A stretch of 64,000 bases of DNA from Lytechinus variegatus (lineage: Eukaryota). Positions 1 to 55,877 of this stretch are shown one piece after another (the first letter of the stretch is position 1; the number at the start of each line of letters is the position of its first letter). Both the position numbers and the translations under genes were made by a program. The stretch lies in NCBI RefSeq assembly GCF_018143015.1, contig NC_054751.1, positions 28,449,438 through 28,513,437 of the forward strand, in the 5' to 3' direction. The notes beneath the pieces are model-generated. The model saw nothing but the letters and a program-made list of their open reading frames with translations. It was not told the DNA's origin and made no database searches.

Positions 1-590
1 TGGTCAGCGATAAAGTAGCTGAAAAATTCTGATCATCGTGCATCATGATTAAAAACGGTTTCAGACCACCAATAATTTCAAATAAAAGTGTTTGTAAATA
101 CAACTCCTTGCAGAGAAAAGTTGAAATTTTTATTTTAATCTGTAATCTTGTTTATTGCATAATTTGCAATAAGCGTTCTTTTATTTGATAAATGTTAGTT
201 TATTTTGTAAGATTTGCCAGTAGTTAGGTGAGCCAGATAGTTATAGTAATAGCAGGGCCTGCTGGGAGGACACTTTTTGGAGCTGAATTGGCCTCTACTG
301 GGTAAAAATACCTATATTATTATTATTGTTGTTGTTATTATTGTTATTAGTATTTATTTATAACTGACAATACTACCTTATTTACATAAACCTACAAATA
401 AATGAATAGTGCATAGTTTTTATTCAATTTAGCTTTAAGACAACTAACTTGGCCTTAACAAATTTTGTATTTCTGTGAAATTGTGATCACCACTCAGAAG
501 TCTCTAGCTGACATGTTGTCTCTCATAATTCTGTCACAAACATAAGATTTCTTAATCATATTACCCTCATTTATTTTGCTTTTTCCACAG

Positions 591-681
591 TGAAAGGCAA
601 TGAGATGGCCAGCGAGGGAAACTACCATGCAGCTATCAAATTTTTCTCAAAAGCAATAGACCTAAATCCATTGGATTTCAG
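591..681 (+). CDS. Gene 1 exon (TPR motif), 5'-truncated gene: TPR/RRM/CCCH zinc-finger protein
   Basis: Acceptor ttttccacAG at 589-590, donor GTAAGA at 682. Translation xKGNEMASEGNYHAAIKFFSKAIDLNPLDF(R) is a canonical TPR helix pattern. Phase links to the next exon (AG|g = R). Confidence 0.75.
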
Positions 682-1091
682 GTAAGATCTTGGTCCATTT
701 CCTCAAGGCTAAATAATTGATTTTAGGACCTATCTTTACAACTGATGGTATCAATCATTCATACTAATCAGTGTCACGTTTAATTGCTGTGTACTGTACT
801 GCATGGTGCAGGTCATCTGAAAGGGCAGGTAACGAACAAAAAGTTGAGTTTGAGAGTTGCCAATTCTAGGCAACCTTGCCAATGGGAGGATTGCCATCGA
901 AAGTTAATAAAGACAATCCTAACTCTCATAACGTCATCATTCTGTAATGGATTGTGACAAATTATTTTAAAAATGCTTAAACTCTTAGTCTCCATTTTCA
1001 GTTTATATGTATTTCCCCAGGGTTTTGAAGCTTCATATCCCATTAATTTTTCAGCAATATAAGATTAAAGTAAATATGAAATAAATAAATT

Positions 1092-1310
1092 GCAGAGCGT
1101 TGTGGCCCAGTGGATAAGTCTTCTGACTTTGAAACAGGGTCGTGGGTTGGAATCCCAGCCATGGCATGATTTCCTTCAGCAAGAAATTTATCCACATTTG
1201 CTGCACTCAACCCAGGTGAGGTGAAGGGGTACCCGGCATGATTAATTCCTTGAATGCATGAGTGCTGAAAGGCAGCTCGAGCTAAACCCTGGGTAATAAT
1301 GATAATGCGC
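1092..1310 (+). mobile_element. tRNA-derived SINE, family A (full copy)
   Basis: The tRNA-like head GCAGAGCGTTGTGGCCCAGTGGATAAGTCTTCTGACTTTGAAACAGGGTCGTGGGTTGGAATCCCAGCCATGGCA carries A and B boxes, followed by a conserved body ending in ...GGGTAATAATGATAATGCGC. Related copies are at 30701-30905(+), 34056-34280(-), 35040-35165(+), 39345-39540(-) and 52795-52920. Confidence 0.8.
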
Positions 1311-1475
1311 CATATTTCTAGAAATATATGTGTCATATATTTAGAAATAGAATATTTCTAGATATATGAAACTATGTAAATGCCTATTATTACATGTATT
1401 TATTATTATTAATATTTTTGTGCTTTGTCGGAATGAGCATTAACTGTCCATCTCTCCTCTTGTTTTCTTTGACAG

Positions 1476-1526
1476 GTTCTTTGGAAATCGCTCTTTTTGT
1501 TATGATCATTTACAAATGTATGACCA
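1476..1526 (+). CDS. Gene 1 exon (TPR)
   Basis: Acceptor ttgacAG, donor GTAAGT at 1527. Encodes RFFGNRSFCYDHLQMYD, a TPR consensus continuing from the previous exon. Confidence 0.7.
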
Positions 1527-2618
1527 GTAAGTTTAAATCCCTTTAAAATCCTTTAGGCTTTGTACAGTGCAATTCCATAAAATGATCAACCTTTTTTCTC
1601 CAGTCTTTCTTTACGCCATAAACCAACCAAGTCATGATATTTTGAGAACATTACAGACTATCAAAAGAACAAGAAATCACAGACAGAAAATTAAATGAAG
1701 GTCCCATAGGGGGTCGGACATACATAATTCATGGAATTGCCCTACAGGGACAACTGGATCCTAGTAGCTATTTGGTTAATTTGTTGACTACATAAGCTTT
1801 GTACATTGACCTTCCAGTGCCAGGTGGAAACTGTCTATAAAACCTGTTTGTGAATTAGAACTTGAAATTATTATGAGTATTGAAAGTGGCTATAATAGTT
1901 TTATGACCAAGAATCATTTCATAATCTCGTCTTTAGCAATAATAAAAGTTTGGGGAAAACGTGTTCAGCCGCAATTGTCCTGCGGAAGAATTTAGTTAAT
2001 CGATGTGATTTTGGTGATTGCATTGCTTTTTTGGTGATTGCATTGCTTTTCAGCAAGACTAGTTCTTATGTGCATCATAGACAGCCCTTTTGAGATGTTG
2101 CTGTCAGTCATCACCCAAATTTACAACCAGAATCACATTCATCTTTAAAGATAGATGCCAGTTGTAGTAACAACTTCAAAATGAGTTCTTAAAGAATCCA
2201 ATAAAACTACCACGAAAATGTCTGTGCTTATGAATAAAGTGTATGCGCCAATGGATTCAGGAATGAATTGTGTAATTGCTGTGTGATTTCTCAGCTAAGG
2301 TTTCGTAAGTTTACAAAGTTCAGTTTATGTAACCACCAGGGGCCCGTTTCATAAAACTTGTTACAATAACAAATTTGCAATAACAGTTAAAAGCTACCGA
2401 AATGCTTCCATTTGATTGGCTGATAGCAGATTTGTTAAAGAAATTTTGTATTTGTTATTATAACAAATCTTTATGAAACGGAACCCAGATCTCAATCCAG
2501 GGTGAAACAGTGACAATTGACATGGTTTACAAACTTTCTAATGGAACCAGTGTTCATTGCTGTTATTTTCATTCATCTTTAATAACATAATGCATGTTTT
2601 TTTTTATTCTTCAAACAG

Positions 2619-2709
2619 TGCACTAAGTGATGCTGACCAAGCAATCCTCTTGGACAAGACATGGCCAAAGGGTCACTACCGAAAAGGCCGTGCCTTGAGT
2701 GGTCTTAAA
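2619..2709 (+). CDS. Gene 1 exon (TPR)
   Basis: Acceptor tcaaacAG, donor GTGAGT at 2710. Encodes HALSDADQAILLDKTWPKGHYRKGRALSGLK, a TPR. Confidence 0.75.
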
Positions 2710-2760
2710 GTGAGTCAGAGTTTCTTATCAGAGCTTAATGTCAATCCAAGGCCAGGTGGG

Positions 2761-2925
2761 CATTTCATAAAGCTGTTCGTAAGTTAAGAGCGACTTAAAG
2801 AACAACTGGTGATCCTTTCTTGTGGTAAATGGTACACTGTATATACATTGGCGATGGTTTAGCATGTAAGAAAGGATCACCAGTTCTTAAAGTCGCTCTT
2901 AACTTACGAACAGCTTAATGAAATG
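2761..2925. mobile_element. Palindromic MITE (TTTCATAAAGCTGTTCGTAAGT...ACTTACGAACAGCTTTATGAAA)
   Basis: The sequence is almost perfectly self-complementary for about 160 bp. A second copy is at 50614-50773. Other TTTCATAAA...TTTATGAAACGG MITEs are at 2339-2486, 6451-6605 and 13604-13752. Confidence 0.7.
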
Positions 2926-3142
2926 GCCCCCTGGACTGGTATGGGGGTATCAAATTCTTACTGCCCCACATTGTTGTTCCCCTTTTTGTCTCGCCTGAAC
3001 GAAGTTCGGCAGAGACCTAGTAATCACTTTCTGATTAGTCTGTTGGTCTGTTAAAAAATGCTTAAAGTTTTTGTTCAACTTGCTCTCATTTCTTTATCTC
3101 AGCATCAATGAAATGCCTAATGATCTTTCTCTTTGTTTTCAG

Positions 3143-3247
3143 CTTTATACAAATGCAGAGGCATCCTTTGAGCATGTCTTGAAACTTGATAAAAACTGTG
3201 CTGAAGCAATCCAAGAGCTGAGGACAGTCAGAGTCTATCGGCTTATG
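3143..3247 (+). CDS. Gene 1 exon (TPR capping helix)
   Basis: Acceptor ctttgttttcAG, donor GTGAGT at 3248. Encodes LYTNAEASFEHVLKLDKNCAEAIQELRTVRVYRLM. Confidence 0.75.
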
Positions 3248-4441
3248 GTGAGTGTTTAATCTTATTGGTCTACACCAGCTTGGTCTACTTTCTGTTTCGT
3301 CTGATCCCATATGGTCTATTCCTTCTTTTCCTTCAAGTTCGTCTCAATGCCTTAATTCAGCATTTTGCCTAATTTCCAGTTGGGCTTTACACATTTAATC
3401 TAATATTCATACCACTTAGTCTAGGTGGTTAGATGAACTGTTTTTTAACCAAATTTCATTTTGACAAATTGAAAAATGACCCAAGAAGTTATTGGACCAA
3501 CTGGGCATTATGCTTGATGGGAAAAAGACGAAGTACTTTAGGTATTAGACCAAGTATGAGGTATAACTTCAGTGAGATTGAAGGTACTGTGGTCAAGTAT
3601 TCTAGGGCCTGGTCTAGCACCTGATTTGAGCCTTAAAAGACAGGATTGCGATCCCTAGACTGTCTTACAAACCCATCACTCCCATTAAAGGGTCTGAATG
3701 CACAGACTACAATGAATAATGTAGTGAAGACGCTCTTGAAATTGAAATATCATATTTTATATTCTTGTTTTCTGTGAACTTCCAATTGTTAAAGTTTCAA
3801 TCAGGGCCTTTGCCTGCAGACTATGTGATCTCTGTCACAGCAGTTCTATGGAGCAAGGCATTTTAACGTCTTTGTTCTTATATTGCCATTACACAAACCG
3901 CAATGTGGCTGCAATGATGCATCACCTCTCTGCTCCAGTCTTGCATCAGTTCATTTTTGTAATTGACTAGGACTCGCTGCTGGTTTTTTCGTTATAAAAA
4001 ACTTCCATCAGTTGATAAAAGAGCAAGAACTAAAAAAAAGACCAGTGTGTAGGCGGTGGCTGACCTCCAGCATCAGACTCGTTGCTGACATTTTGCGTAA
4101 CATCATCAGACTTGTAAAAGGCAAAAGCTGGAGCCTCTGTTTAGATAATAGGCTAGTATTGGTATGGCTTTCTAGGGTTATTCTTTGAACATTATGATAC
4201 TTTTGGAAAATAGCACTGTATCTCTACATTCTGATATTACGATAGCAATGATAATAATGCATCTTGGGTGCAAATAGCGACACTGTACTCTTCGAAGATC
4301 CCAAGGTGCTAAGTGCATATATTACCGTGGCTGTAGAATAAAATTGTTTCAAAGAAAGAATATTCATATACCCATTTACTACACCTGGGTTTAGTGCAGC
4401 ACAATGTGGATGAATAATGCCGTTCCCTTCTTCCCTTACAG

Positions 4442-4620
4442 GAAATGGGTTTTGGTGCACAACAAAGCGAAGCAGCTATCTTACAATTTGACACAGTGCA
4501 AGCAGCACTGGAAAACCTACTCGCACAAGGGGATCTACCCGTCAACGGGGAAATGGATGAAGTTTACGTCTCAGACGAAGAAGATTACATAACCCAAACC
4601 ATTCAAGAGAGCAAGCTTGA
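4442..4620 (+). CDS. Gene 1 exon (linker, acidic)
   Basis: Acceptor cccttacAG, donor GTAAGT at 4621. The ORF is continuous and in phase with its neighbours: EMGFGAQQSEAAILQFDTVQAALENLLAQGDLPVNGEMDEVYVSDEEDYITQTIQESKLE. Confidence 0.65.
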
Positions 4621-5221
4621 GTAAGTCCTTTGATTTAATCTCTTCTTATCATGACATTGGCAATAGTCATTAATTTTCTATACATTTGCATACTTTGAGA
4701 AAATGGAATATGAATATAAAGCATGGGTCACAATTGTAATTTCAAAGTTTAATTTTAAGATTGCCAATTTGCATTTTTAGATTATGATTGTATATACTTT
4801 TGTTGCGTTGCCAATTTTGAGAATTTCTATGAGGAGGACTACGTAACCCAAAATAGTACTTTAACCCATAGACATACAAAAGTTTGACTTCATCAGCTTT
4901 CTCTCAAATTGGTATTTTATTTTTCTTGCTATCTTACATAGTTAAAAAAAGAACAAACATATGGTTGAAAAAAATCATTGCAAAATTAAATTTTGAAATT
5001 GCTAGATTGCATTCTAAAATAGTGGTTTTATATTTTTGGTATTTCCAATTTTAAGAGCAAAATGATTGAGAAAAAGTGATTCGGCTTTCATATTACTTAT
5101 GACCTTCACTCTTAGATTTTTAATGATCCATTTATGTAATAAGAAATATCACATATGGTACAGTAATCCCGGTCTTAATGGGGTTCACTACTAGTTCCAT
5201 GATGTTTTCTTTGAACTCCAG

Positions 5222-5311
5222 CTCAAGAAATCCTGAAAATTTGAAATCCTTGTGGATAGGTAATCTACAACCAACAGTTACTGAAAAGGAATTAAAGGAC
5301 CTTTTTAAACC
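5222..5311 (+). CDS. Gene 1 exon (RRM N-terminal half, RNP2-like LWIGNL)
   Basis: Acceptor ctccAG, donor GTGAGT at 5312. Encodes DSRNPENLKSLWIGNLQPTVTEKELKDLFKP; LWIGNL is an RNP2-type hexamer. Confidence 0.75.
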
Positions 5312-5818
5312 GTGAGTATAATTGTTTTGATGTTTTAAGCTGCAGTATGGTAATTCATTTTTAATTGATTTAAAACATTATGCACATATATGTATGTCAT
5401 ATGAATTGTCTCGTATCTATTAGTGACTAGTTCATACACATCTGAAGTATTGAAATTGGTTATTGCTTGAAATATCCTACATAAAATAAAGTTTCTCATG
5501 TTATTTTGCATCTGGCCACATTTGGTTGCTGAAAGCATTATGTTTTAGGGCCATCTGTCTGTATTCACTCTCATGGTAACTAAAGAGCTGTTTGATGGAT
5601 CAACTTAAAACTTTCTCCAAGTACACATATAGGAGTGATGATGACCTAATAAGTTTCACGGGTAACAGCGTCATTGTAGAGGTTCTGGCTATCGTATACC
5701 TGAAAGTATCCTATTCTTGAGATAACTAAGGAACCATTTGAGGGTTCAACTTCAAACTTGACTCAGAAGTGATATGATTGTGTTTATGTAATACTATGAT
5801 CTTTATTTGTGTTGACAG

Positions 5819-5921
5819 ATTTGGCGAGGTCTCCAGTATGAGACGAATGCCAGAAAAGTTTTGTGCCTTTGTTAATTACAAGGACCCCAGAATGGCCAGC
5901 AGAGCTATGGACAAACTACAG
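5819..5921 (+). CDS. Gene 1 exon (RRM C-terminal half, RNP1-like KFCAFVNY)
   Basis: Acceptor gttgacAG, donor GTATGC at 5922. Encodes PFGEVSSMRRMPEKFCAFVNYKDPRMASRAMDKLQ. Confidence 0.75.
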
Positions 5922-6244
5922 GTATGCGTGAGCACTTCTTGATTGCTTAGATAGAAATATATGAGTCATCGTAATGTCCCAGAGATTCTGAATAGTATTT
6001 TACGTTAAATTTGATTAATCTGGGGTCAAATGGATTAATTTCCTTCACCAAAAAATTGATCCGCACTGTGCTATACAGGTAAGGTATATGGGTACCTTGC
6101 AGGAATTTATTCATAAAAGCTTTGAGCGAGTAACAGTAGCTTGGCTAAAGCCAGGCTTAAGCCAAGGTAATTATGCTGTATTTACTGTAGAGCGAATAGA
6201 CTCTGATAAAAAGTTGTTGATCACCACACAAGCAAGTACAGTTG

Positions 6245-6440
6245 TTAATCAGCTCAGTCAGTAGAGCATTTTTAGATTCCGGTGAGCTGAGTTTGATTCC
6301 CCCATGGTGCTCTAGAGCCTCTTGGTATGGCATTAATCCTCAATACCAGGTCCCTCGGAGAGGATCTTGTGCTGTAATTCGTCTGGTTGGTTGCTTGCTT
6401 ACAAGCATTCATGCTTTCTTAGCAATGTGGTAAAAAAAAA
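6245..6440 (+). mobile_element. tRNA-derived SINE, family D (poly-A tail)
   Basis: AGCTCAGTCAGTAGAGCATTTTTAGATTCCGGTGAGCTGAGTTTGATTCCCCC is a tRNA-like head. The element ends in A9 at 6430-6440. Confidence 0.6.
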
Positions 6441-6682
6441 TCATCACCTTGGGCCCGTTTCATAAAGAGTTACAACAGCTGCATCTTTGCCATAATGGTA
6501 ACTACCAGGGTAACCTTGATTATGAGTGGCTGCTGAGACTTGTTACCATGGTAGTTGCCATAATGGCAAAGTTACAACAGTTGTAACTCTTTAGGAAACG
6601 GGCCCTATAACTTTGTTCCATGATGTCACTTCACTATGGTGACAAATGGTTCTCTCTCTCTCTATCTGTATCTTGATTTCAG

Positions 6683-6888
6683 GGTCGGGAACTGCATGGG
6701 AAGCAGCTACTAATAAAATTCCCAGACAACCCTATAGAACAACAAACCGCTCCAGTCAACGACCACCAGGAGTATGTGGACATGCGCTACAAGAACCTGA
6801 TCCTCAGGAAACCACAGGCGCAGATGTCGGCCAGCAAAGTCAACAACAACAATGTTAACAAGAAAACCAAGCAGCAAATAGACCCAGC
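6683..6888 (+). CDS. Gene 1 exon (end of RRM plus low-complexity linker)
   Basis: Acceptor tcttgatttcAG, donor GTAAGT at 6889. Encodes GRELHGKQLLIKFPDNP...NNNNVNKKTKQQIDP. Confidence 0.7.
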
Positions 6889-7357
6889 GTAAGTACAGAG
6901 GGCTGGAATTTTTGTCGTGCTTTTGTTTTTACCAATGTTCGAGGTTTGTGAACCATGTTGACTACGTCCTCAAGTTTCCGGTCCAAAGGTTCACCACCTT
7001 TGTCAAAGTGGTTGAGAAATATAAAGGAGATTAAAGGGATGGTCTGGGCTGAAAGTATTTATAGCTTAATAAATAGAGTAGAATTCACTGAGCAAAATTC
7101 CCAAAATGTAGCTTCCATTAGGGAGCTGCGTGTATTAGATATTGGGTCTCCCAGATCCAGATAAATCCCTCATCCAGATTGGTGCTGGTCCCAACGTGTC
7201 CGGATAAGAGAGGTTGGACTGTATGATTAAAGGACCAAAATTGGACTTTATAGATGGGTAGTTGCTAGAGCAGTTCTGACTGAAATTTGAAAGATTGTTC
7301 CTAAATGTTCCTCTGTCTTTCTTCTTTATCTCTCTTTCTTGGTTCCAATGCTAAAAG

Positions 7358-7481
7358 GTTCAAGATGTCTGGACCAGTAAACGGTGATGAATGTTACTTC
7401 TGGAGGACCACAGGTTGCTGGTATGCTGAGCGTTGCCGCTACAAACATCTACCCGAATCCAAGGGCATCGACAGGAAGTAA
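7358..7481 (+). CDS. Gene 1 terminal exon with CCCH zinc finger; stop TAA 7479-7481
   Basis: Acceptor ctaaaAG. Encodes AFKMSGPVNGDECYFWRTTGCWYAERCRYKHLPESKGIDRK*. C-x7-C-x5-C-x3-H is a textbook CCCH finger. The reading phase is consistent across all nine exons. Confidence 0.75.
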
Positions 7482-8442
7482 TTGCGCCCTCTACAGCCCG
7501 AGGTTGAATGTTGTTTGACAACAAAGATTCAAGAGTGGAAGCTTTTTTTTTTTTTTTTTTAATGTCCCATACGTGAAAAAAAAAGAAAATTCACTTACGG
7601 GATAAAACTTGAAAGACATTGGACGAAAGAGTCCCCTTTTTATATATAAATATGTAGACATTAATATAAAACAGGGGTCTTAGAAGAACAAAATGACATA
7701 CCCTGACTTGACTTTTTATATTGGTGGGATCGTTTTTTTTTTTCCTTTAAAAGATGCTTTTGCTATACTGAGCAGTGGAAAAAGAAAAAAAATTGAGCAA
7801 CGTTTATGAACAAGTTGGAGGAAGAAGTTGTTTGGAGAGAAACGAGCGACAACACCAAACAGAGCAAGCGGACGACACGTCTGAATATGGCACGTGAGAC
7901 CTTCATTGAAGGACAGCTGCAGAGAAGGTGTAGAAGAAATATCAACTTCAGAGTCACATCAGCGCAGCAATGGCTGTTGTACCAAAGGTGCTTATGATAA
8001 AGTTATCCTATGGGGAGTTGACTAGAGGAAGATGTCTGATTATGAAATAATATTTACTATTTAATAACATAACTGATGTTTCTAGACATGTGATAGAGTG
8101 ATCGCTATCTTTTTATTCCAGACCAAAATTGTGCATCTCCAGCTAATAAGTGAAGGATCTCGCATCAATCGCCTTTGTGAAAACGTGTACCCGATTCAAT
8201 ATGTGCAGCAATGAAACATAAAATGCAATGATTTTTAAAAATTTCTTACCAAACGTACATCCTAATTCAATTAGCAAGAAGTGGCAGAATATATTCAATC
8301 AAGCAATTAAAGTCTATCATTTTTCAGAAGTCAGATTTTTTGTTCTGTTGAAGTTGAGCACACAGGCAAGAGATGAAATCATCATATGCAGAAATGGATG
8401 TTGTTCATAAATTCTCCCTACTGCCAGTACAATATTAGCCAA

Positions 8443-8943
8443 TTTAAAGAGGAAGTTCACCTTGAAGAAAAGTTTGTTGTAAAACTAGCAGAAAAGATAT
8501 TTAAAAATATTGGTGAAGGTTTGAGAAAAATCGGTTAAGAGATTAAGAAAGTTATTAGAAATGTAAGTTTTGGATTTGTGATATCATAAACGAGCAGGTG
8601 CCCCTTATCTTGTATGAAATGCATGGATTTCATTTTATAATGGTTCCTGAGGACTTTTTTGCTTTCTTTTCATGATCGGGTGTGAAATGATTTGTCTATT
8701 GATATTCAAAAGGTACAGTAAAAACCATTTTCAAATTTCAGAGAAAAAAAATCATTTCATTGATTTTTTTTTACCATTCGCTATTAGGAATGCTGCTCGC
8801 ATAGGACGTCACAAATAAAATTATTGAAATTCTAAGAACTTTTTTATTCTTGGATGGATTTATCTCAAACCTTTGGCAATATTTTTTATTTTTTCTGCTA
8901 TTTTTACAATAAAATTTTTGTCAGGGTGAACTTCCCCTTTAAA
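8443..8943. mobile_element. MITE family with TIR AAAGGGGAAGTTCACCCTGA
   Basis: Start AAAGAGGAAGTTCACCTTGAAGAAAAGTTTGTTGTAAAA; the end is the reverse-complement TTTTTACAATAAAATTTTTGTCAGGGTGAACTTCCCCTTTAAA. Other copies are at 9910-10341, 14297-14583 and 36189-36512 (MVP intron 16). Confidence 0.75.
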
Positions 8944-11434
8944 GAAGGTGATGAATCTCTTATTACAGCAGTAAGATTATTAGCTGATGAAAGAATACGG
9001 AGATTAATAAGTGTCTAACATTTCCAACATATTCTTAGTATTATATTGTCCACATTCTGAACAGCAATGTTGCACCATCATAATCTGTTGCTAAAAATTT
9101 TATTTTATTCACTTCATGACTTTTTATCTGGCTTGATTTTTTCTGAAATCATTTTTTCTTAAATGAGATCAGTGCTCTGTAAGTCTACTAACGGCAAACC
9201 ATGTACCAAAGTGACAGCCAATTTTAAATATGTATTTACATAACACATTCTTGATCCCCTTTCATAAAGAGATGGGGGTGGTGTTTCTTAACGAGTTCAG
9301 TGTGTCTTAAAGTCGTGCTCAAACACTAACACATAATCTGATTGGTAGTGCACATCCCTTGCGCATGATCAAACCAATGTGGTGATGCATTATATACTGC
9401 ATGCATCTGAGATTTAATCACGACTCTTAATTCTTTGTGATAACACCTCCCTGATTATTGATTACAATCAATCCTAAAATTTAGTACCTGTTCTGCCATA
9501 GACTTGCACAACTGTAATAGCAAAATAATTTGTTCAATTGTATATTTTCTGTTTGGATATACTGTTTTGTAAACTTGTCAGCACTATCAAATACATGATT
9601 TCAATAACAAATTTGACATTCACCAATCAAATTTCATTATTTTATAAGCTTTTAACTTCAACATGAATTGGTCATTGATAACAATTTTCATCAATCAGTA
9701 CCCTAGATCATATTGTATTGCCTTTAACACAAAATGATCCTGTTTCTTGAACCTATTATTGATAGAATATTACAAATTTTTACTGGAAGATAATAAAATC
9801 ATGGCATTTGATTGGCTGATAGAAAAATTGTCATGGCATTTTAGCATTTTATGAACTGGAGATTAGTACTTTTCTGTTTTGTAGAATATTGTATTGGCAA
9901 TAGGGAGATTTAAAGGGGAAGTTCACCCTGACGAAAAGTTTGTTGTAAAAATTACCAGAACAAAATAATAAAAGCATTGTGAAGGTTTGAGGAAAATCCA
10001 TTTAAGATTAAGGAACTTATTAGAATTTTCAGCTGCCCCAGATGTTACATAATATAAATTGCATAAATGTAATTTTTTAAGGGTTCATGATGATTAAAGG
10101 TTTCTTCTAGGAGTGGGGGTGAAATAATTTGTCAATATAGTGAAGGTAAAATAATACCCATTAAAAAATTTTGAGAAAATTACATTTCATTGATTTTTTT
10201 TAAATTCACAAATAAAAAAATGACATTTATGTTTAACTTTTTAAATCTTTGATGGATTTTCCTCAAACCCTCATCAATATTTTTTATTATGTTTTCTGCT
10301 CTTTTTACAATAATTTTTTGTAAGATGAACTTCCCCTTTAACCTTCCATTTTTTGCAAAAAAATATTTTAACTTGGTACTGAACAATGTCACTGTCATTT
10401 TTCTATTTTAGTTTGAGACAGATGTATTTCCTTTTTATGTTCTCTACCACCTACTTATCAACTTGATAGCTTTACGATTTTATCAATTTATAGAAATTAG
10501 GGCTGGTGAAGAATAATATAATCTGATGCTTGAATGTTATCTTACGAATGTTTATTCATTTGAATAACTGTGATATATTTATTGGTCAGGGGAGTCCAGT
10601 CCAGTTTTATCCAAAAGTTACTATAGTAACCATAGTAACTGTGGGTCTCGGCCAATCAAAATCAAGGAAAATTGTCAGATCCTACACCTTGTTGGATGAA
10701 AATGTTGATGAAATGCTCCCTTGGAGAGCAAAAAAGGGGGTAAAGTAATATGATCTGTCTTGAAATAATGGTTTTATTATTTATTTTCCTTCACATTATT
10801 TCATGGTCCACATTCTTGGTAACTTTGCTAACTTTCTGTTTAGTCTGATCACATATGGTCTAATCTCAGTTTTAAAAAATTGGAAAAATTTACAAAGTAT
10901 AAAAAAATTAATATTAAATTATCTGAAGTTGATGTGATAAACTGACATTTCTTTATGCCAAGGAATAAAACATGAGTGACTGTTGAACTCAAATGAGAGG
11001 AAATTTGAATATTTGATTTGATAAGAATTAGATAGTTCCATCAACCTCCCATAAATCAAACTTGTATGAAATGAAAAATCTGGCAAATGTAATAATGACA
11101 CCTTACATATTTTTCAGCCTGTTTTTTTTTAATGACCCTTTAGATTGGACTATTGGAATATTGCATGTGCTTATTTAAATAAGATAAGGATTTATTTATT
11201 TACTATATTATTTAAGATTTTAAGGACTGTGTTTCTTAGGCCTGTATTCTGAGCTCCAATTTGATTTACACTCTGGCCCAAAGTTGTTAAATTATGTATA
11301 ACCAATTGTGATACAAATCTCTGGTACAGTTTCAACTTACCACCTCAATTAATACTAAAATCATTGATAGTTGATTGGGAATAACTACTAAAATAGTTTT
11401 CGTCACATTTAAAACATGGGGGAAATATTGTAAA

Positions 11435-11480
<46 letters not shown>

Positions 11481-14400
11481 TTAACAAAATGTTAAGCTTC
11501 CCATAGTTCTGGCACAGAGTTAGACCATGGCCTAAATTAAACTGACTTCAGCATACAGGCCTTATTGTCAGGGGATTCAAATAACTTACAGGAGTGTATT
11601 TCTGAAGATTAATTTCCCACAATGAGGGGATAATTTCTCAAGCAATCCATAGAAACATGTTCTGCTATGGGATACGTAAGGGGGTGTTGCAAGAAACTAG
11701 TTGCAATCAATTGCACATTTCTATTGCAATTTTACAATTGATAGATCAATTGTAACTACATGTATGGCAAATAGATATTTCGTTCCTGATGAAAGATAAA
11801 ATAAATTGAGTGCAAATTTGCAATTGATCGCCAGACTTGTGATTGATTGTGGGACGTAGAATTAAATTGCAATTGATTGCTAGTTGATTGCAATGCCCCA
11901 ACAAACTTCTGACCAAACCAATGTTGACATCAGGAATTACTTTCTTTTTTAATTGTCAGCCAATCGGCTTGTTAGGATGATGTGTTTTCTTCTGAAATCT
12001 TGTATCAATCTTAAGGCCCTTGTCACATTGTTCCGTGCAAGCCTTGCATGTAATTTGCCGGTGACTATTTTAGCTACCCGCATTGCCCAGGGGTGGCCCA
12101 CAGTGACAGTTTCTCGCTAGCAGTTGCCCACAGTAGCAATCGCAAGTCTCATTTGTGCGCAGAAAAGTTTTGAGCACATTCAAAACTTGTTTTGTTACGG
12201 GCGAGTTGCAAGAGAATGCCCTCAGCTTGCCCGCAAGGCTTGCGTGGAACGATGTGACCGGGCCATTATCAATGTCTGAGGCAATAATGTCATGTGCAAG
12301 CATGAACTTGTATTTCTGCAACTTTGACCATGTGTGTTCTTATGTACACTGTCCGTCATATAGTAGGATAGGACGTACAGTACATGTCATCGTTGGGCTG
12401 TTAAAACTTTGTCGGAATACAGAATTAAATCTTGAAATTTAAAAGAAAAAATGAGTACAGCTGAGAAAAACTCTATTATAGAGGTGTGACTTCAGTTGGA
12501 AATCATCTTTTGCACAGAAATATATCTGTAAAAGAATTAGGAGGTTGTTTCAGACAATGTGATGTTGCCAACATTTTCATATTTCTAGATTGCCACTCTT
12601 TTTTGAGCTGTCCTAATTTTTTCAAATTTTTATTTTTAGATACAAGGTAAGAACAGCCCAGCAGTGATGTATGTCGGTCTATGTTCATGGGTTCCAGATG
12701 CTCTACATGTCGTTTTAGATGTGATTCTTATTTATGATGAAAAAGAGCAAGAGGTTTAGGGGGGCTGCCATCACCGTTAGACATGGAAATACTGTTGATA
12801 CTAAATAAAAAATATAGGCTTTAATTCATAAATATGATTTTAATCTGTAGTCTGAAGTCATGATTTCGCCATTTCATGCATTGATTACACTTAAAGCAAT
12901 GTATATTTTATTTTAACCAAAGGGCCTAAAATGAATGCATGATTTTATTACAGAGTGGTGCATTCTTGCAGGTTACTTATAAAGGTTACTGCATGAATGG
13001 ACCAACATGCAAGAATCTATCGAAGTGGGTATTCATTATTTTGCTCTTCCTCAATATATTTACCAAATTAAGCATAATTAAAGAATGAAATCTACTTTAA
13101 CCATGGTTTTCAGACTACAAAATCAAATTTTCCTACAGTTGGGCCTATAAGTCTTATTTTTTTATATCAATAAAACTATTCAATATTTTCATTTATTTTA
13201 TTTATTATTATTTTTTTTTTGGGGGGGAATCGAGAAGGCATAATTAATGCAATCAATACTTGAAGATATTTCAAAGAATCGATACCACAATCATAATAAA
13301 TAGTTGACTATGGCAAAATATATAGCCTATTTGGTTGGTATAAGCACATAGATATTACCTATGAATAATAGAATTCTACTCTTGAAAGTGGTAAAAGAAA
13401 ATTATTATTGTAATGGGAATAAAACATTTTGTTTAAGTAGCTGCTAAGTTTTAAGGAGTCACTGTAATTTTGGCTCCATATCTTTCAAAAGCAGATCTGC
13501 CAGAATAAACACAATTTTTAAATGATCCAGTCTGCGTTGTCAACGTCTTAGTTATTTTGTGTTTTTACAAAACCAGTGCTTTTGGTCTTGTTATCCACAT
13601 CAGGGTCCTCTGTCATAAAGATTTGTTATAATAACGAATGCACAATTGTTATGACAAGTTCACTATCAGCCAATCAAAATGAGTGATTTCAGTAGCTTGA
13701 AAGGTTTATTGCTATTTTGTTATTATAACAAGTTTTATGAAACAGGGACCCCCATCAGGTTGAAAATTATTGTAGAAGATAAGATCTTAATGATACAGTC
13801 ATACCAACGAGATGGCAGATGGTATGTCGGTAAATTGCCAATTCGTCCTCTGCCAACTCGTCCACTCACCACATATGGTCTACGTTTATTTAGTCTAATG
13901 CCATTCTGTCCAACATTTCATCTAAAAGCCATTTGGTCCAATAAGCACTTTGTCTATTTCCATTTCGTGTCACAACCAGTTGGTCTAATACCTATTTTCT
14001 TTTCAATAATTTTGCCCAATGAACGCTTAGTCCAGTTAGACCAAATGGTATATGGACTAAATGGCTATTGGACCGACTGGTTATTAGACAAAATGCGAAG
14101 TGGATAGACCATGTGGATAGTGGACGAACTGATGGTATACATCGTACCAGATGATAGTAGACGAGTTGGTTATTGGACGAACTGGCATTAGACCAATTGG
14201 AAATAAACGGGTATGTTAATTGTAACTTCAGTCAGTCTGGAGGTGGTTTGATGTTGTGACTGGGCATAAGATTAATTGTTCTTAAGAAAAAGCACTAAAA
14301 GGGGAAGTTTTACTGTACCTACAGTATACCAATAGACAAATCATTTCACACCCATTCCTATAAAGAAAGCAAAAATAAGTTGTCATGAACCATTAAAAAT

Positions 14401-24862: not shown

Positions 24863-25118
24863 TACATGTAGTTGGTTTGTTTGCACCTCGCCAATCGACC
24901 TGACTGGTGTGTCAGAAATTGTGCTATATCCTTACATTTCGTGTCCATGAATATTCCTGAGGCGTACTGACAAACTAAACCATATTGTATTGTCATTATA
25001 TGTCAATCACGACCGTACCGATTTGGAGTCAAATCCTTCCCACATACATGGACATGTATATTCTTCTTGATATCAAAACACCATATATCATCTTGATTGT
25101 ATCGTTAATTCTACCCAG

Positions 25119-25267
25119 CCATCAAGCCGCTCCCTGTGGTGAAAGCAAATCAAGCCATCCGTCTGTTCGCCCTAGTTGATCACACCAGCCCTGAAGGGGT
25201 GAAGAGATACGCTGGTGATGAATGGCAGTATCACGGACCACTCACATACAAACCCACCGCTGAGGCA
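25119..25267 (+). CDS. MVP: MVP exon 5 (MVP repeat 1)
   Basis: Acceptor ctacccAG, donor GTAAGA at 25268. PIKPLPVVKANQAIRLFALVDHTSPEGVKRYAGDEWQYHGPLTYKPTAEA matches MVP repeat 1 (PLQVVLPNTALHLKALLD...AGDEWLFEGPGTYIP). Confidence 0.9.
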
Positions 25268-25644
25268 GTAAGATCTCTCTCTCTTAATTTCCATACCAAC
25301 TATCTTACCTATTATTTTTTTCATTTTCCATGACTTTCTTGCAATTCAGTATGAATGTGTGACATCATTTTTCTTTTGTGCATTTTAGCATTTTTATGAC
25401 CATATTTCACTGAAATGCCCCCCCCCCCCAAAAAAAAAAAAGTTTTGTGAGATCATTGCTTTGTTGCTCTATTATGATTTCCAATTATTATAAGATTTGA
25501 TGTTATGGCAGGATTCCTGTATGCAACTACATGTACATAAAAAAATATATTTTAGCAGCGTGGGTGTATTATGAAATAATTAGTTTTCCTTGTATATTCA
25601 CACACTATTTATTGAAGTATGTATTTTCTGTGTTTTATTAACAG

Positions 25645-30340: not shown

Positions 30341-31415
30341 GTGAGTAAAAATAATCTTGAGAACCCAGTTAATTCCACAGTCAGGTTAATCAAAGTATGG
30401 CAAGTTGAAACTTACATGTATCAAGGGGATCGCAAGCTTCTTCCTACACCCAAAATTAGTAGAAAAATCCTATTCAAAGGGGTTACAGCTACAGTTTATT
30501 TATGATAATGGTAATGTTATGTAGCAATGCAGCTGTGTGCTGTAAAATTGTCTACTTGCACATCAATTCATTTTTATATCCATGTTTTGGTGTTTTTGTT
30601 TGAAAAAAACAACTTGTATTCAGCTTTGGTAAAAAAAAAAAAATAGTTTACATTAGGTCTGAATACATAGTGGCTTTGGCAAGATTATCTAATTACTACT
30701 GGGTTTGAATCTCAGCCACGGCGTGTTTTCCTTCAGCAAGAAATTTATCCACACTGTGCTGCACTCGACCCAGGTGAGGAGAATGGGTACCTGGCAGGAG
30801 TAATTCCTTACATGCACTGAGCGCTGGTGATGGTAGCTTGAGCTAAAGCCGGGGTAATAATAGCAGCGCAAAAAGCGCTTTATAAATCCAGCTATTATTA
30901 TTACTGAATTCTTCAATTCCTATACAGTTTGGACAGGTATGTCTCATTTCCAGTATTATAAGATTAATCCATTTGCTGTGAGAATCAGATGGTCCTGTAT
31001 TAAATCCACCATAAATAAGCAATTTAGTGCTCAAGTCTTGATAGAATAACTTTCATTCTGTAAAGTGACTGCATTAAAACCTTTTTATTGCTGCATTTTG
31101 CCTTATAGAGTTTGATTATGAGAATTTAATTGAGATTAATAGTGAATGTCTTTACAGGTAGTGATTGTGACATTTCCATGATGTTGCCAATTTTAAAGAT
31201 TTCACTGATTGTTATATTTTTTGTCAACAATTATATGAAATGCACACAGACTGTGTTTCATGTATTTTTCTCTTTCTTGGATGTATTTGCCACCCCCCTC
31301 CTCCTTTTCTAGCTGTATGATCTACTAAAATACATGTAGCTTGGCTTTGTTAGATTTAATACACCTATTTAAATATAGTCCATTTAAAAAGAATCTTTTC
31401 TTTTATGTATTGCAG

Positions 31416-31518: not shown

Positions 31519-32337
<819 letters not shown>

Positions 32338-32338
<1 letters not shown>

Positions 32339-32460
32339 ATGATGGTGATGATGATGACGATGATGTTGATGATGACGATGATGATGTTGATGATGATGAT
32401 GGTGATGATGATGTTCATGATGTTGATGGTGATGATGATGACGATAATGTTGATGATGAC
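32338..32460. repeat. (GATGAT/GATGAC)n microsatellite adjoining the AGT tract
   Basis: GATGGTGATGATGATGACGATGATGTTGATGATGAC... continues to 32460. Confidence 0.9.
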
Positions 32461-32515
32461 GATGACGGCAACAAAAAAAAACATTATGGTGATCGTACGT
32501 CTTAATAATTTCTAG

Positions 32516-32624
32516 GAGGGAAAGTTCGCAAACCTGGAGATCGATGGATGATCAGAGGGCCTAAGAGTTACATTCCTCCCACACAAGTCAAAGAATTAGA
32601 TCAAGGAAACTCTCAAGTCATCAG
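32516..32624 (+). CDS. MVP: MVP exon 11
   Basis: Acceptor aataatttctAG, donor GTATGT at 32625. GGKVRKPGDRWMIRGPKSYIPPTQVKELDQGNSQVI matches [28 protein letters not shown]. Confidence 0.9.
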
Positions 32625-32887
32625 GTATGTCATTCAATTTTCCTCTGTACCTGTATACAGTGGTGCTAAAAAGTTAGAGACTTTACCTGCCCTTTTTCTC
32701 CCTTTAAATGTGGAAAATGAAAGAGTATTTTTTATTGAGTTGACTCCATATTCACATTGTTTTTGTGTAAATATTGATGTAATGGAAAATGTATTCTGTA
32801 TTTGCTAGCTCACTTGCTCTCTCTCTTTCTCTCCACCCAGTATTCACTCTCTTTGATTTTGCTTCTCTCTTATTATATGTATCACAG

Positions 32888-32948
32888 GAAAGCTATTCCT
32901 CTGGGTGAAAATGAAGGAATTTACATCAGAAATCTACAAAGTGGAGAG
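32888..32948 (+). CDS. MVP: MVP exon 12
   Basis: Acceptor atcacAG, donor GTGTGT at 32949. RKAIPLGENEGIYIRNLQSGE matches PLDENEGIYVQDVKTGKV. Confidence 0.9.
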
Positions 32949-33068
32949 GTGTGTAGATTTCAGTGGTGGTATATTAAACTTACCTGTTTGAAGTCATGTG
33001 AATAAAGCATCATCAATAGTTCACACTGTAGCATGCAATCATGGTAGGCAAACAATCGTTATTTTTAA

Positions 33069-33481: not shown

Positions 33482-34461
33482 GTAAGTTCCTCATCTTATA
33501 AACAATGTTGTTATTTGATGCATGCTCTTATAAATATTAAAGTCAACTCTTTATGTAAATCCTGCTGTTTTCTATTGATGAAAAAATCAGGAAAAAATTG
33601 AAAAGTGGTTCCATATTGATTTGAGAATTTTTTTTCTTGAGAGTTACAATTGTTTTTTGAACGTGTATGTCCATTGCCTGAGCCCTGTATTATGCTTTTC
33701 ACACTGTATTTCCTTAAACCCATACTATGTTTGACCCCGTACTTTTGGGGTTTCACACTGTCTTTCTTAACCATAATGTTAATGTCTTAACCCCGAACTA
33801 TCGCACAGCTCATGAATATTGATAATTTTGCCACACAGAGCATGATTAACATGCAATTTTTACTTCTGTGATTGGCTAATGCTTAGCCCACTTTTCCTTA
33901 GCCCGATTTGGTTTCACACTGCAGTTCTAAGCACTGCAATTGTGGTGCTAGCACCTCAGTAAGCCGGCTAATCCTGCTTTTTAGCAGGGCAAGATAGTAA
34001 TAATAACAATAGGCATTTATACAGTGCCATCTATCTAGAAATATTCTATTCCGAGGCGCGTTATTATTATTATTACCCCTGCTTTAGCTCAGGCTGCCTT
34101 TCAGTGCTCATGCATTCAAGGAAATAATCTTGCTGGGTACCCATTCACCTCACCTGGGTTGAGTGCAGCACAATATGGATAAATTTCTTACTGAATGACA
34201 TTACGCCATGGCTGGGATTCAAAACCACAACCCTCTGTTTTAAAGTCAGAAGACTAATCCACTGGGCCACAGTGCTCCACTAGTACTATACTATTTTCTG
34301 TGCTAGCCCACTTTGGTAAAATATAGTGTGAAACCAAAGTGGGAAACCGAAGTGGGCTAAGCTTAACCCTGGGAAATAGCCCCACCTGTTTCCCGGGGTT
34401 GAGGAAAATTTCTGTAGTGTGAAAAGCATGTACATGTATGTGTCTTTTAATCTGTTTGTAG

Positions 34462-34546: not shown

Positions 34547-35569
34547 GTAAGGCAAAGAGGCTCAGTGGTTGACGCAGTGGTGCAAGAATAGGCAGGTTGT
34601 CGGTTCACAAATGAGCCACTGAAAAATGGCTTTCAATAATTCAATCATAATTTTCATACTTGGGAAATGATGCATACTTTTCAGCTATGTCAATATGTCA
34701 ATTGTTTTCTACGAGAATAGCTTTTAAAAATAGTCATTATGAAAAGGGGGATTGGCAGGTTCGATGTTCAAACAATCACCACCGACAAATGGGTCAAATA
34801 ATTGTAAAAAAAAAAATTTCATGAAACAGTGTTGAAAGCTACTGAAATCCTTACATCTGATTGGCTGAAAGCAGATTAGTTATTGAAAATGGCTCACAAA
34901 ACTCTACATGAAATGCTCCCCTGATTGTACTTTGAGAGACATTACCCTTGAATACATGGTTAAGACAGAAAGTTCAAACAGTGACAATATGAAATATGCC
35001 TTAATTGAAATACAATTCTGAATTATGACAGTGGGTTAATTTCTGAATGTGGAGCTTTGCGGCACGGTAGATTAGTCTCTGGAGTTTGAAACAGGGGGTC
35101 GTGGGTTTGAATCCAAGCCATGGCAGCAGGAAGTTAATTCCTCAAAAAGCTGTGAGCAATGCGAGACTGTGTGTGTGTGTGTGTATTTGAGTTTTGTCAG
35201 AGGTGTAACAATCAGGTATGATTATTTACGTCTAGGACTGACCTTTAACGTCACCATCCGAAAGACGTTATCAGGGCTCGAACCTCTGCACCAATTTGTA
35301 ACTTCCCCACAGCTTGGATTACAGGCGCACGCCACAACGCCCAGCTAAGCTGGTAATAGGCTTACCTTCAGCCCCTACATGTAACAAGGTGGATATGTGT
35401 ATTATCCCAATACCCTATGTTATTATTATTATAATTATCATTAAATGTTTTGTATTAGATAACATGGATACTTTCATTCCAGGGGATGATTAAAAAAAAA
35501 ATCTGATGATTTTTAAAGTGGTTAAATGTTTTTGAAGATTCTTTTTTAACTCTCTCTCTCTTTAATTAT

Positions 35570-40027: not shown

Positions 40028-40255
40028 ATGTATTTGCCCTATTGATGAATAAACCACAATACTTGGAATTGTGTTTCCTTACTGCTATATCAGATTAGCC
40101 TTGGGCAATCTTGTAGTTTGTCAGGAAGACTTTTTATAGAAAGTGTATCAAACATTTACACGAGACTGGAAATATTACATTTGTGTATATCATCACTTAA
40201 CTTTTTGGAGTCTGCTTCACTTGGTGTCTTGGTATTTCAATTTCTGTCCTAACAG

Positions 40256-40398
40256 GAAGTCGCATCCGTGGTGCCGTGTCAAGGGTCAAATTTGACGAGT
40301 TTCACCGTCACTCTATGGAGCTGTTGAAGACTGGCGTGTTCGGTTTGAATCCCGATAAGACTCCCAAAGATAGACTAGTCTTTAAAGCCAACAAACTG
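40256..40398 (+). CDS. MVP: MVP exon 20
   Basis: Acceptor tcctaacAG, donor GTAAGT at 40399. GSRIRGAVSRVKFDEFHRHSMELLKTGVFGLNPDKTPKDRLVFKANKL matches [30 protein letters not shown]. Confidence 0.92.
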
Positions 40399-41540
40399 GT
40401 AAGTTGTCATTGGGGGCATGTTGCGGGGTGGGGAGACGGGGTCAATTTTGGACTTGATTTGAAAAAAGGTCCGCTCTTGTATTGTGATTGATCATTGACA
40501 TATTGAAAATTGGTGCCGTTCATGTAGTCTATAACTTTCAACTTATTGAATAATAATTATGATGATTTGATTTATAGTTTGATTTTTATCCAAGAACAAA
40601 GGATACCAGTGTTTTATATATAAAATTTGTAGATCAGGGGAGGATTTCACAAAGAGTAAAGTGTGATGAAAAGTCTCTGCCGGAACGTGAGTCACATAAT
40701 CTGCCACAACTCAGTAGGTGTGGTTACTTCACATCATCTTCATTTTTTATGTTGTTTTTATCTGTTACTTCTTAGCAACACACTATGAGATATTCAATAA
40801 TCTATTGATGGCTTGAGGAATTCATTACACAACCAATCAAACACAACTCTCGAAACTTTATACTCAACTTGTTTTTCAAGAAATAAAAAACGTGTACTCA
40901 GAAATTGCACTTGATTTTTTCAGTTGCATTTATAAAGACAAGTCTTTCTGCAACGGCCCCCAGATTTGAAAATCAAGTTGCTGATAATTTCTAGAGTTCC
41001 ATCAGGGACTCAGTTTTAGCGAAAGCGATTGCTCGCTACCGCTCTCCTTAATCAATTTAAGTTAGAGCAATTTATCGCTCGCCTCAGCGAATTCAATGTT
41101 TTGTATTAAAACATAAAATGATTAATGCAGAGATGCACAAAAAAAGAAAGAAATCAAGCAGCATTATACACATTTGTATTATTTGTACATTCCATGTATA
41201 ATCTCTATTCTGGTATGACTTAAAGAGTGTCGGTTAATGATCAAACTGTTAGATCCAAACCTTGTAAAAACCTCATTCTAGGTCAAGGTTTTATAAACAA
41301 CACACAATTACACAATTAGCTATAAGCAGTAACATACATTACAACAGCGCCTGCATTACAAGAATGACAATAAAAAGTTCATTGAGATATATATTGCATA
41401 TTGACCCTTTATTTGATTAATTGTCTCCTTTGGTTATGGGTTGTATGATGATGCATAGAAAATGTGAAATGAACATATGAATAAAATCTTCACCCCTTGA
41501 ACCAGACATTCACCACTGCTCTCTGTATCCCTGTCCCTAG

Positions 41541-49015: not shown

Positions 49016-50879
49016 CGTGTAGTTATGATGAATATTATTTGTATGGTCAACAGTTGAATATTATTGGAAACATAATTATATTTGATATATAAATGAAATA
49101 AACATCTCTCAAAGAAGACAAATCCTTATTATTGTCCAGTGCTAAATTATATTTGCCATGAGATAGATTAAACTAAAGGGGTCATTTCTTGTGATTATAA
49201 AAACTGAAAGTGGTTGAATTTACACTGCCATTTTTCAACAAGGCAGTCCTACCATCAGCTGTTCCTAACTTTATTTTGTTTTTGTTCTTGCAAAATTACA
49301 AATAACCAATGGGTCGAGTCTATGAGAGGTGGTCCCCTCCAGCGGCCTAGTAACTCGGATGTACCGGCCTCAACTACATCCCTGGGAATAATCTGGATTT
49401 TCCAGGTCAGAACTTTGATTAAACAGTTCAAAACTTCCAAGGATTGCTTGCTTATGTATCGAGGTATTAATAACATTATTCTGTGCCTTCAATCTCTTGT
49501 TTCTATTTTTTCTTGTTTTTTTATTTTGCATATTCCTACCTCTGAATATAGAAATATAGTATAAATATTCTATCAAATACAAGAGTGGAATGTTAAATAA
49601 AATGGTTCAGTTTAATAGCACAAAGAGAGATCTAATAGACTATTTGATTGTCATTTTTTCATTTACAATATTACTTGTTTACAATATTATTTTTCTAATT
49701 TTTATCAGTGATGAATCGTTAATGATATTTTGATGTTATCAGACTCATTACTACTTATAAAATTTGAGAAATGTAATTTGTGTTATGTGTTGGAATCATG
49801 TATTTTCCATTCAAATTTGCCTTTGGCAAAAATATATATATTTAGAGTGCCAGTATATAGTTTTGATTATGAATACATTTCAAGTTTACTATATTGGTTT
49901 TTTTTTTCTTTGTCAGTGAAATTATACTAACATTTATACTAACATTTGAGTGACTTGTAAGAGGAATTATAAGTGGAAAATAGAAAAGTGGAAAAATGCC
50001 AACTTACAACCAATGGACTCTGGGAATTTGGAGGTGTTTAATGTAATATATCCAAGGCCTCCAAGAAGTTGTTTGTACCCCCCCCCTCCCCCTCTCTGAA
50101 TGTTGAAGTCTTAATACATTATACAAACATGAATTATACATACACCTGATATACAGTAAACTCAAATGACAAATTTTTCACAGAAATCATATTCTATAAG
50201 AAACATCTTTGTGTTTATTACAGTAAATGCCAGGAATCAATAAATAGCATCTACGATTGTGGAGGTCGAGTACAAGGGCAAAATTTGGGCAGAGAAATTG
50301 CCTGTAAAACCCACCGCACACTACATGATCCAACTACGATGCATTTTCTTTTAAACAATCACATTCTGTATCAAAAACAATACAATGATATTTTAGTTCT
50401 AAGAAAACCTAAAATAATATATGACATTCAAAATAATGCTAGGAATACTACTAACAGAATTCTCCTATGCTGCTAGCACTGAGGTCGGAGTAAAGTCCCA
50501 AATCTGGTTTCTAGCTGCATGCAGTCGATGACTTCATTACGATTTGGAATTGAATTTGCTTTTATTCGTACAGGGGGGCTCTAAATAGACTGTAATTTTC
50601 ATGTCTTGTGGGTGTTTCATAAAGCTGTTCGTAAGTCAAGAGCGACTATAAGAACGACTGGTGATCCTTTCTTGTGGCGAATGGTATATTCATTAGCGAT
50701 GCTTCTGCGCGTAAGAAAGGATCCCCAGTCGTTCTTAAAGTCTCTCTTGACTTACAAACAGCTTTATGAAACGGCCTCCAGTATTCTTACCACATTCCAA
50801 AATTTCATTCCCATCCTAAGAAACCAAGATTTTATAGGTGGGAATGGAATGTTCAAATTAAATGTTATTTAGAGAACCG

Positions 50880-55840: not shown

Positions 55841-55877
55841 CTGGTATGCGAATAAAGCAATTATATCAGTTATTTAC

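Follow-up and report, generated by a model that had tools for sequence, protein, structure and literature searches.

A probable sea urchin orthologue of the TTC31 / zgc:123010 family with TPR, UBA, RRM and CCCH modules

Nine exons at 591-7481

The stretch of DNA analysed here (hereafter the window) comprises 64,000 nucleotides of the Lytechinus variegatus genome (contig NC_054751.1 of assembly GCF_018143015.1, forward-strand positions 28,449,438 to 28,513,437), and the gene that concerns us occupies positions 591-7481 of its + strand. An initial annotation had seen there a single gene combining tetratricopeptide repeats (TPR), an RNA recognition motif (RRM) and a C-terminal CCCH zinc finger, an observation that our analysis confirmed. 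With a predicted ubiquitin-associated (UBA) domain added to this list, the segment very probably represents the last nine coding exons of the urchin orthologue of the TTC31 / zgc:123010 family, a protein of four modules with an inferred adaptor role.

Placing the exons by their splice signals and reading the sequence over positions 1-9000, we obtained nine + strand exons within 591-7481 that join into a single stop-free frame of 345 codons, closed by a TAA at 7479-7481. An AG precedes all nine exons, while the first eight end in GTAAGA, GTAAGT, GTGAGT or GTATGC donors; the 16 internal splice sites are all canonical and neither a frameshift nor an internal stop interrupts the 345 codons. The first 2 nt of exon 1 complete a codon begun in an exon that lies outside the window.

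Comparison of the window with four homologues by tblastn recovered nine blocks in the same order with P0001 (an urchin-like protein, UniParc UPI0000587FAE, which is the best database match of the spliced product at 87% identity), P0003 (from a bivalve) and P0016 (from a coral), as well as eight of the nine, exon 1 being missed, with the shark protein P0048. The E-values per exon, which range from ~1e-2 (0.09 for one coral block) to 1e-30, lie far beyond chance. The same searches gave no gene match in 1-590 or beyond 7481, in line with the placing of the 5' end outside the window by the initial annotation; a minus-strand TPR-like match at 56.6 kb (E=0.67) was taken as chance. The exons are listed below together with the evidence for each, the structural values coming from an AlphaFold2 (AF2) model that was predicted, with a 41-sequence alignment, for P0001 in place of the window protein, and that is scored by the predicted local distance difference test (pLDDT).

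Exon 1 (an internal exon), 591-681, + strand: TPR1, KGNEMASEGNYHAAIKFFSKAIDLNPLDF(R); AG at 589-590 and GTAAGA donor; covered by tblastn high-scoring segment pairs of P0001, P0003 and P0016.
Exon 2, 1476-1526, + strand: start of TPR2 (FFGNRSFCYDHLQMYD), with the clamp-equivalent N34 (kept in 41 of 42); AG and GTAAGT donor; matched by tblastn.
Exon 3, 2619-2709, + strand: remainder of TPR2 and start of TPR3 (ALSDADQAILLDKTWPKGHYRKGRALSGLK), with the invariant K64 and R68 (42 of 42); AG and GTGAGT donor.
Exon 4, 3143-3247, + strand: end of TPR3 and capping helix, continuing as UBA helix 1 (LYTNAEASFEHVLKLDKNCAEAIQELRTVRVYRLM); AG and GTGAGT donor; orthologue-model helices H75-88 and H93-109, pLDDT ~98.
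Exon 5, 4442-4620, + strand: UBA core (EMGFGAQQSEAAILQFDTVQAALENLL), followed by an acidic disordered linker; family profile A3 against solved UBA domains; pLDDT 93-98.
Exon 6, 5222-5311, + strand: RRM beta1 (RNP2 LWIGNL, from 5250) and alpha1; Pfam RRM_1; W183 in 42 of 42.
Exon 7, 5819-5921, + strand: RRM beta2, beta3 (RNP1 KFCAFVNY) and alpha2; Pfam RRM_1; C217 and F219 in 42 of 42.
Exon 8, 6683-6888, + strand: RRM beta4 (LLIKFPDNP, to ~6721), followed by a low-complexity Q/N/K-rich linker; linker pLDDT <50 in the orthologue model.
Exon 9 (last coding exon), 7358-7481, + strand: GPVNGDECYFWRTTGCWYAERCRYKH; CCCH finger at 7392-7448; stop codon TAA at 7479-7481.

Splice sites, continuous frame and tblastn blocks together bear out the assignment of nine exons to one gene, whose start at 591 and end at 7481 had been given exactly. 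The motifs quoted from it, LWIGNL, KFCAFVNY and CYFWRTTGCWYAERCRYKH, are all found in the product; the Q in the earlier peptide YDQHALS is superfluous, as the exon 2 donor falls between CCA and GTAAGT and the junction reads MYDHALS.

Several repeats lie in the introns of this gene. Palindromes resembling miniature inverted-repeat transposable elements occur at 2744-2942, 6451-6605 and 2335-2490, with arms of 60-64 nt that are 88% complementary; the elements have related GGGCCCGTTTCATAAA-type termini, and copies at 50608-50779 and 13599-13751 show 79-82% identity. A repeat resembling a short interspersed nuclear element occupies 1085-1300 in intron 1, with copies at 34069-34277 (- strand), 30700-30861 (+ strand) and 35052-35125 at 81-87% identity; its 5' part looks, by eye, as if derived from a transfer RNA (tRNA), and ARAGORN calls no tRNA in the window. 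Since Rfam (at gathering thresholds) and ARAGORN found no RNA gene over the whole window, the introns hold no small nucleolar RNAs or tRNAs.

Four modules of the spliced product

The protein encoded by these exons carries, in order, three TPRs, a UBA domain, an acidic disordered linker, the RRM, a low-complexity linker (~60 residues from RRM to finger) and the CCCH finger. In the model of P0001 all four modules have pLDDT values of 91-98 and both linkers fall below 50, with a predicted template modelling score (pTM) of 0.45; these linker and pTM values predict independent modules, arranged like beads on a string. Conceptual splicing followed by a Pfam search, the check proposed by the initial annotation, was run and recovered on the spliced product both TPR_1/2/8 at residues 1-~100 (E~1e-12) and RRM_1 (PF00076) at residues 182-245 (64.7 bits against a cutoff of 20.7, E=7e-18).

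The TPR region, previously described as about three motifs, consists of three TPRs and a capping helix by Pfam, phmmer and the orthologue model alike, the last of which shows seven helices at pLDDT ~98. When its N-terminal 105 residues were searched against the PDB with phmmer, the neighbours were HOP TPR2B and TPR1 (HOP down to 1e-31), RPAP3, PP5, SGTA, SPAG1 and CHIP, and the nearest PDB folds found by Foldseek are the EEVD-peptide-binding TPRs of RPAP3, SGTA (root-mean-square deviation, rmsd, 0.5 Å), HOP, SPAG1, PP5 and CHIP, several of which were solved with Hsp70/Hsp90 peptides. The two-carboxylate clamp of HOP TPR1 is formed by K8, N12, N43, K73 and R77 (the residue numbers reportedly being those of Scheufler and co-workers in 2000). 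In the window protein, the alignment gives N12, N43, K73 and R77 their counterparts in N3, N34, K64 and R68, and within the family the equivalents of K73 and R77 are kept in 42 of 42 sequences, that of N43 in 41 of 42 and that of N12 in 25 of 42. The EEVD-binding co-chaperones (HOP/STIP1, RPAP3, SGTA, PP5, CHIP and SPAG1) thus have the same fold of three TPRs and capping helix as the orthologue model (rmsd 0.5-1.7 Å) and share the equivalents of N12, N43, K73 and R77 with the window protein; unlike TTC31 orthologues, none of them has an RRM or a CCCH finger, and the equivalent of K8 is Ala in these orthologues.

The earlier domain list of TPR, RRM and CCCH finger stands for all three of its entries but had overlooked the predicted UBA domain, which lies between the TPRs and the RRM (~3230-4525, including an intron) and has the capping helix of the TPRs fused into its first helix. 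It was revealed by a profile of residues 98-147 from 26 family members (A3), which, searched against solved structures, matches the UBA domains of HUWE1 (1.5e-5), UBAC1 (3e-5) and TDRD3 (6.5e-4), as well as those of TNRC6C and Dsk2. The model of P0001 predicts three helices here (pLDDT 93-98), and in the family alignment G115 and F116 of the MGF/MGY loop are invariant or nearly so. Profile matches and predicted fold together point to a UBA domain of the type described by Pfam PF00627 / PF22562.

The RRM, with its RNP2-like LWIGNL and RNP1-like KFCAFVNY, is canonical, as first described. W183, C217 and F219 are each present in 42 of 42 family sequences, the domain is modelled at pLDDT 95-98, and its nearest structures by Foldseek are hnRNP R, RBM7 and RBM39. 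As in RBM22, U2AF1 and RBM26/27, one RRM is accompanied by a CCCH finger, and RBM22 is among the sequence matches of the RRM. However, in the window protein the finger stands C-terminal to the RRM after the disordered linker of ~60 residues, the resemblance is confined to the domains, and TPR and UBA domains are missing from all of those proteins.

The finger has the ligands C317-x7-C325-x5-C331-x3-H335, each of which is kept in 40 of the 40 orthologues with a residue at that position. The Pfam model zf-CCCH_3 matches 12 of 41 family members at E<=0.01. A profile built on the last 40 residues (A4) picks up CCCH fingers of known structure at 8.5e-4 and 1.8e-3, followed by those of ZC3H-type proteins, CPSF30, TTP and U2AF1. 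The window protein also contains the finger signature of the family, GPVNGDECYFWRTTGC, which includes ECYFWRTTGC, and the finger of P0001 is modelled at pLDDT 91-94. The single C-terminal CCCH finger of the initial annotation is upheld by the invariant ligands, the profile and the model, although on its own it scores below the Pfam cutoff.

At the 3' end the gene departs from its relatives: almost all orthologues end in ...KG(I/V)D(R/K)KPWQ(K), whereas the window frame halts right after GIDRK. P0001, the nearest urchin protein, is likewise without KPWQ. The pattern CCNTGGCAR, which a micro-exon for the KPWQ tail would carry, was not found within 12.5 kb 3' of the gene (7.4-20 kb). A candidate retrieved with a looser pattern at 11,524 (KPWPKLN and a stop) has a weak acceptor, and about one loose match is expected by chance; it was rejected because finger and tail are encoded in a single exon in both Mactra and Limulus. 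A missed micro-exon is therefore unlikely, and we conclude from the genomic sequence that the tail was probably lost in this lineage.

Residues 347-407 of P0001 run past the position of the window stop as ...KNCCYPKLNE..., resembling the NCALYSPRLNV of the +1 frame in the 3' flank of the window gene (7479-7515). The additional residues at the end of P0001 seem to stem from reading on, in another frame, through sequence homologous to this flank, and the difference between the two 3' ends would reflect either a 1-nt species difference or a frame error in the older gene model.

An animal-wide family and the surroundings of the gene

Database searches with the spliced protein returned 416 proteins at E <= 1e-5, of which the best 120 were listed and provide the statements on species, coverage and domains that follow. 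Most of these 120 span 99-100% of the window product in one protein and nearly all have both TPR and RRM; family members align to the whole (100%) of the product at 40-55% identity. The listed matches come from coral, many molluscs, a sea spider, spiders, ticks, horseshoe crabs, crustaceans and hemimetabolous insects and, among vertebrates, from sharks, teleosts, coelacanth, caecilians and monotremes, to which a second search, with the N-terminus and TPRs of the platypus protein as query, adds lamprey, frogs and birds. The members go by the database names "tetratricopeptide repeat protein 31" (TTC31), "zgc:123010", "STIP1-like" and "C3H1-type domain-containing protein", or are uncharacterised. 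The initial annotation could not assign the gene to a named family; these matches place it in TTC31 / zgc:123010. Its description of the architecture as uncommon holds among characterised proteins but not within this conserved animal family of 416 matches, in which the combination is standard. Judged by its sequence, the gene is an ordinary orthologue of an annotated, uncharacterised, animal-wide family, that is, a TTC31-like member of a family already known.

The window product corresponds to the C-terminal 345 residues of proteins whose length elsewhere among animals is ~500-600 aa, so that the nine exons make up the 3' two-thirds of the gene. TPR and RRM_1 occur in each of the 41 aligned members, and an N-terminal DnaJ domain (PF00226) is found in 15 of the 41. 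Some Logan contigs barely exceed their open reading frames (535 aa on 1,991 nt, and 602 aa on 1,927 nt) and are too short for introns; they therefore derive from spliced transcripts, and place TPR, RRM and CCCH finger on one mRNA in other species. The 27 invariant columns of the family alignment (A1) are shared with the window protein by definition. For seven of the eight introns, an exon boundary of the Mactra and Limulus loci lies no more than 1 residue away; the eighth falls in a linker that cannot be aligned. This coincidence of seven of eight intron positions argues for orthology and for an ancient gene structure.

Upstream of the TPRs, the alignment of orthologues shows a conserved N-terminal basic coiled coil (EKRRAKKKRRRERKK) and a SAFVA motif. 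In its first 100 columns (A1, columns 1-100) bivalves show HPD as the J-domain motif, gastropods HPE and a tick HPT; in crustaceans it can no longer be recognised, and vertebrates lack it. The J domain of the family is, as these columns read, decaying lineage by lineage. The coiled coil of the urchin gene, possibly with a J-like domain, is expected to lie in 5' exons upstream of the window. J domains are combined with TPRs in DNAJC7/TPR2 and DNAJC3/p58IPK, and with an RRM in DNAJC17. The TTC31 family, taken as a whole, joins all three, but differs from these proteins in domain order, adds UBA and CCCH modules, and has altered the HPD motif or lost the domain in many lineages.

In its collinear order of three TPRs, UBA, RRM and CCCH the window protein agrees with the proteins annotated as TTC31 / zgc:123010 in fish, frogs, birds, monotremes, spiders and sea spiders, and it shares with them the invariant residues and the ECYFWRTTGC signature as well as the introns held in common with the mollusc and chelicerate members. 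It differs in having no C-terminal KPWQ tail, and its N-terminal half lies off the window. Teleost Ttc31 is reported to lie, by synteny, in the paralogon of the mammalian TTC31 locus (PMC2446394); the search with the platypus N-terminus and TPRs recovered no therian protein, the TTC31-named matches being from frogs, birds and fish only. The family may be orthologous to human TTC31, a relation for which source names and the teleost synteny (PMC2446394) are the grounds. Human TTC31 is described as a protein of three TPRs that ends in a disordered C-terminus and has neither RRM nor CCCH finger (PMC7279152), and its knockdown is reported to lead to centriole over-duplication and supernumerary centrioles (PMC3817404).

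Two further genes lie in the window: downstream of the TTC31-like gene lies a multi-exon gene for major vault protein (MVP), and beyond it, on the opposite strand, a MAK16-type ribosome-biogenesis gene. The concatenated MVP exons are 80% identical to the Strongylocentrotus purpuratus MVP-like protein XP_011664280, the next match, from a sponge, being at 60%. Together with the match to P0001, this most likely places the source of the DNA among echinoids akin to, but other than, S. purpuratus; P0001 itself may be a S. purpuratus prediction of 2005, to which its UniParc number range offers a lead. Two simple-sequence arrays stand in what is apparently an intron of MVP, shortly before one of the Vault exons.

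~25100-45300, + strand: MVP gene, with open reading frame fragments matching Pfam Vault repeats at 25109-25330 and 32509-32805, Vault_4 at 32778-33002 and MVP_shoulder at 40201-40488.
31520-32338: (TAG)n microsatellite of ~0.8 kb, ~272 copies with 94% matches, followed at 32338-32465 by a (GAT)n-like array.
~52100-58600, - strand: MAK16-type gene, with exons at 58370-58570 and 55623-55865 (Pfam Ribosomal_L28e/Mak16, E~1e-17 to 1e-19) and a C-terminal exon at 52122-52400 that is acidic and rich in Ser, Asp and Glu.

A possible adaptor between RNA and chaperones

The types of domain found in the protein suggest how it might work. The RRM and the CCCH finger would provide the grip on single-stranded RNA or a ribonucleoprotein; the TPR groove, together with the J domain where this is kept, would recruit chaperones of the Hsp70/Hsp90 type; and the UBA domain would bring ubiquitin or ubiquitylated partners to the RNA or ribonucleoprotein so held. 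Such an adaptor, joining chaperones and ubiquitin to RNA, is a tentative proposal, to which we give somewhat less than an even chance.

Several observations weigh against this interpretation and the domain assignments behind it. Taken as a single sequence, the finger reaches 12.1 bits with zf-CCCH (PF00642) against a cutoff of 20.5 (E=0.19), and the UBA domain 14.5 bits with UBA_7 against a cutoff of 27 (E=0.034). The conserved KPWQ tail is absent, the stop coming ~5-8 residues before that of almost all orthologues. The two-carboxylate clamp is, as far as the aligned residues tell, incomplete in the family: the equivalent of HOP K8, which lies off the window in the urchin gene, is Ala in 36 of 40 orthologues and never Lys, and the equivalent of N12 is Ile in vertebrate members, so that binding of Hsp70/Hsp90 tails is only plausible. 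The label "co-chaperone-type" given to the TPRs at the outset is accordingly sound for their fold and sequence neighbours, but not for the first clamp lysine. In the literature searched on TTC31 / zgc:123010 there is no functional experiment on any member with RRM and CCCH finger, nor a description of the full J/TPR/UBA/RRM/CCCH architecture, and the sole functional datum for the namesake (PMC3817404) concerns human TTC31, which is reported to have TPRs only (PMC7279152).

The gaps in the clamp lend themselves to another explanation, in which the TPRs bind some other partner and the protein serves more generally as a scaffold for RNA binding, perhaps in control of the cell cycle or the centrosome as is reported for human TTC31, with no link to chaperones. 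The replacement of the first clamp lysine and the loss of the second clamp residue, an Asn, in vertebrates both favour it, as do the J domain that is missing or degenerate in many lineages (HPE, HPT or none, with 15 of 41 members having one) and the supernumerary centrioles seen on knockdown of human TTC31 (PMC3817404). Against this, the equivalents of K73, R77 and N43 are invariant or nearly so, the nearest neighbours in sequence and structure are all EEVD-binding TPRs, and the HPD motif is intact in the J domain of bivalve orthologues; we regard the scaffold as a serious but doubtful alternative, at roughly a third of our belief.

Two readings of the locus itself fare much worse. The poor conservation of the acidic and low-complexity linkers is what one might see if two adjacent genes, one encoding TPR-UBA and the other RRM-CCCH, had been wrongly chained, but most of the 120 listed proteins across Metazoa, including those on intronless, transcript-sized contigs, span 99-100% of the product, the frame is continuous over eight junctions, and the introns match single-gene models of Mactra and Limulus, so that this reading is effectively refuted. 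That the gene is a decaying, unexpressed pseudogene copy of the family could be argued from the shortened C-terminus without its KPWQ; however, the intact frame and canonical splice sites, the retention of all listed family-invariant residues, the 87% identity to P0001, which itself ends without KPWQ, and the presence of introns, which shows that it is not a retrocopy, make a pseudogene highly improbable. The segment is thus best described as the 3' coding part of a TTC31 / zgc:123010 orthologue.

The urchin gene itself adds little, as the family is already present in hundreds of annotated genomes; its interest lies in a family kept from cnidarians to monotremes. An unlikely but possible view is that ancestral animal TTC31, of which the urchin gene is a typical representative, was an unrecognised kind of RNA-bound co-chaperone whose J, TPR and UBA modules would bring Hsp70/Hsp90 and ubiquitin signalling to RNA or ribonucleoproteins gripped by its RRM and CCCH finger, and whose RNA-binding half was lost in therians. 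The human gene of this name seems to be a truncated derivative, and, if this view is true, the therian loss would explain why the human gene gave no hint of such a function. Both the possible link between chaperones or ubiquitin and RNA and the possible relation to the centriole phenotype could conveniently be approached in the sea urchin embryo, which lends itself to knock-down and imaging.

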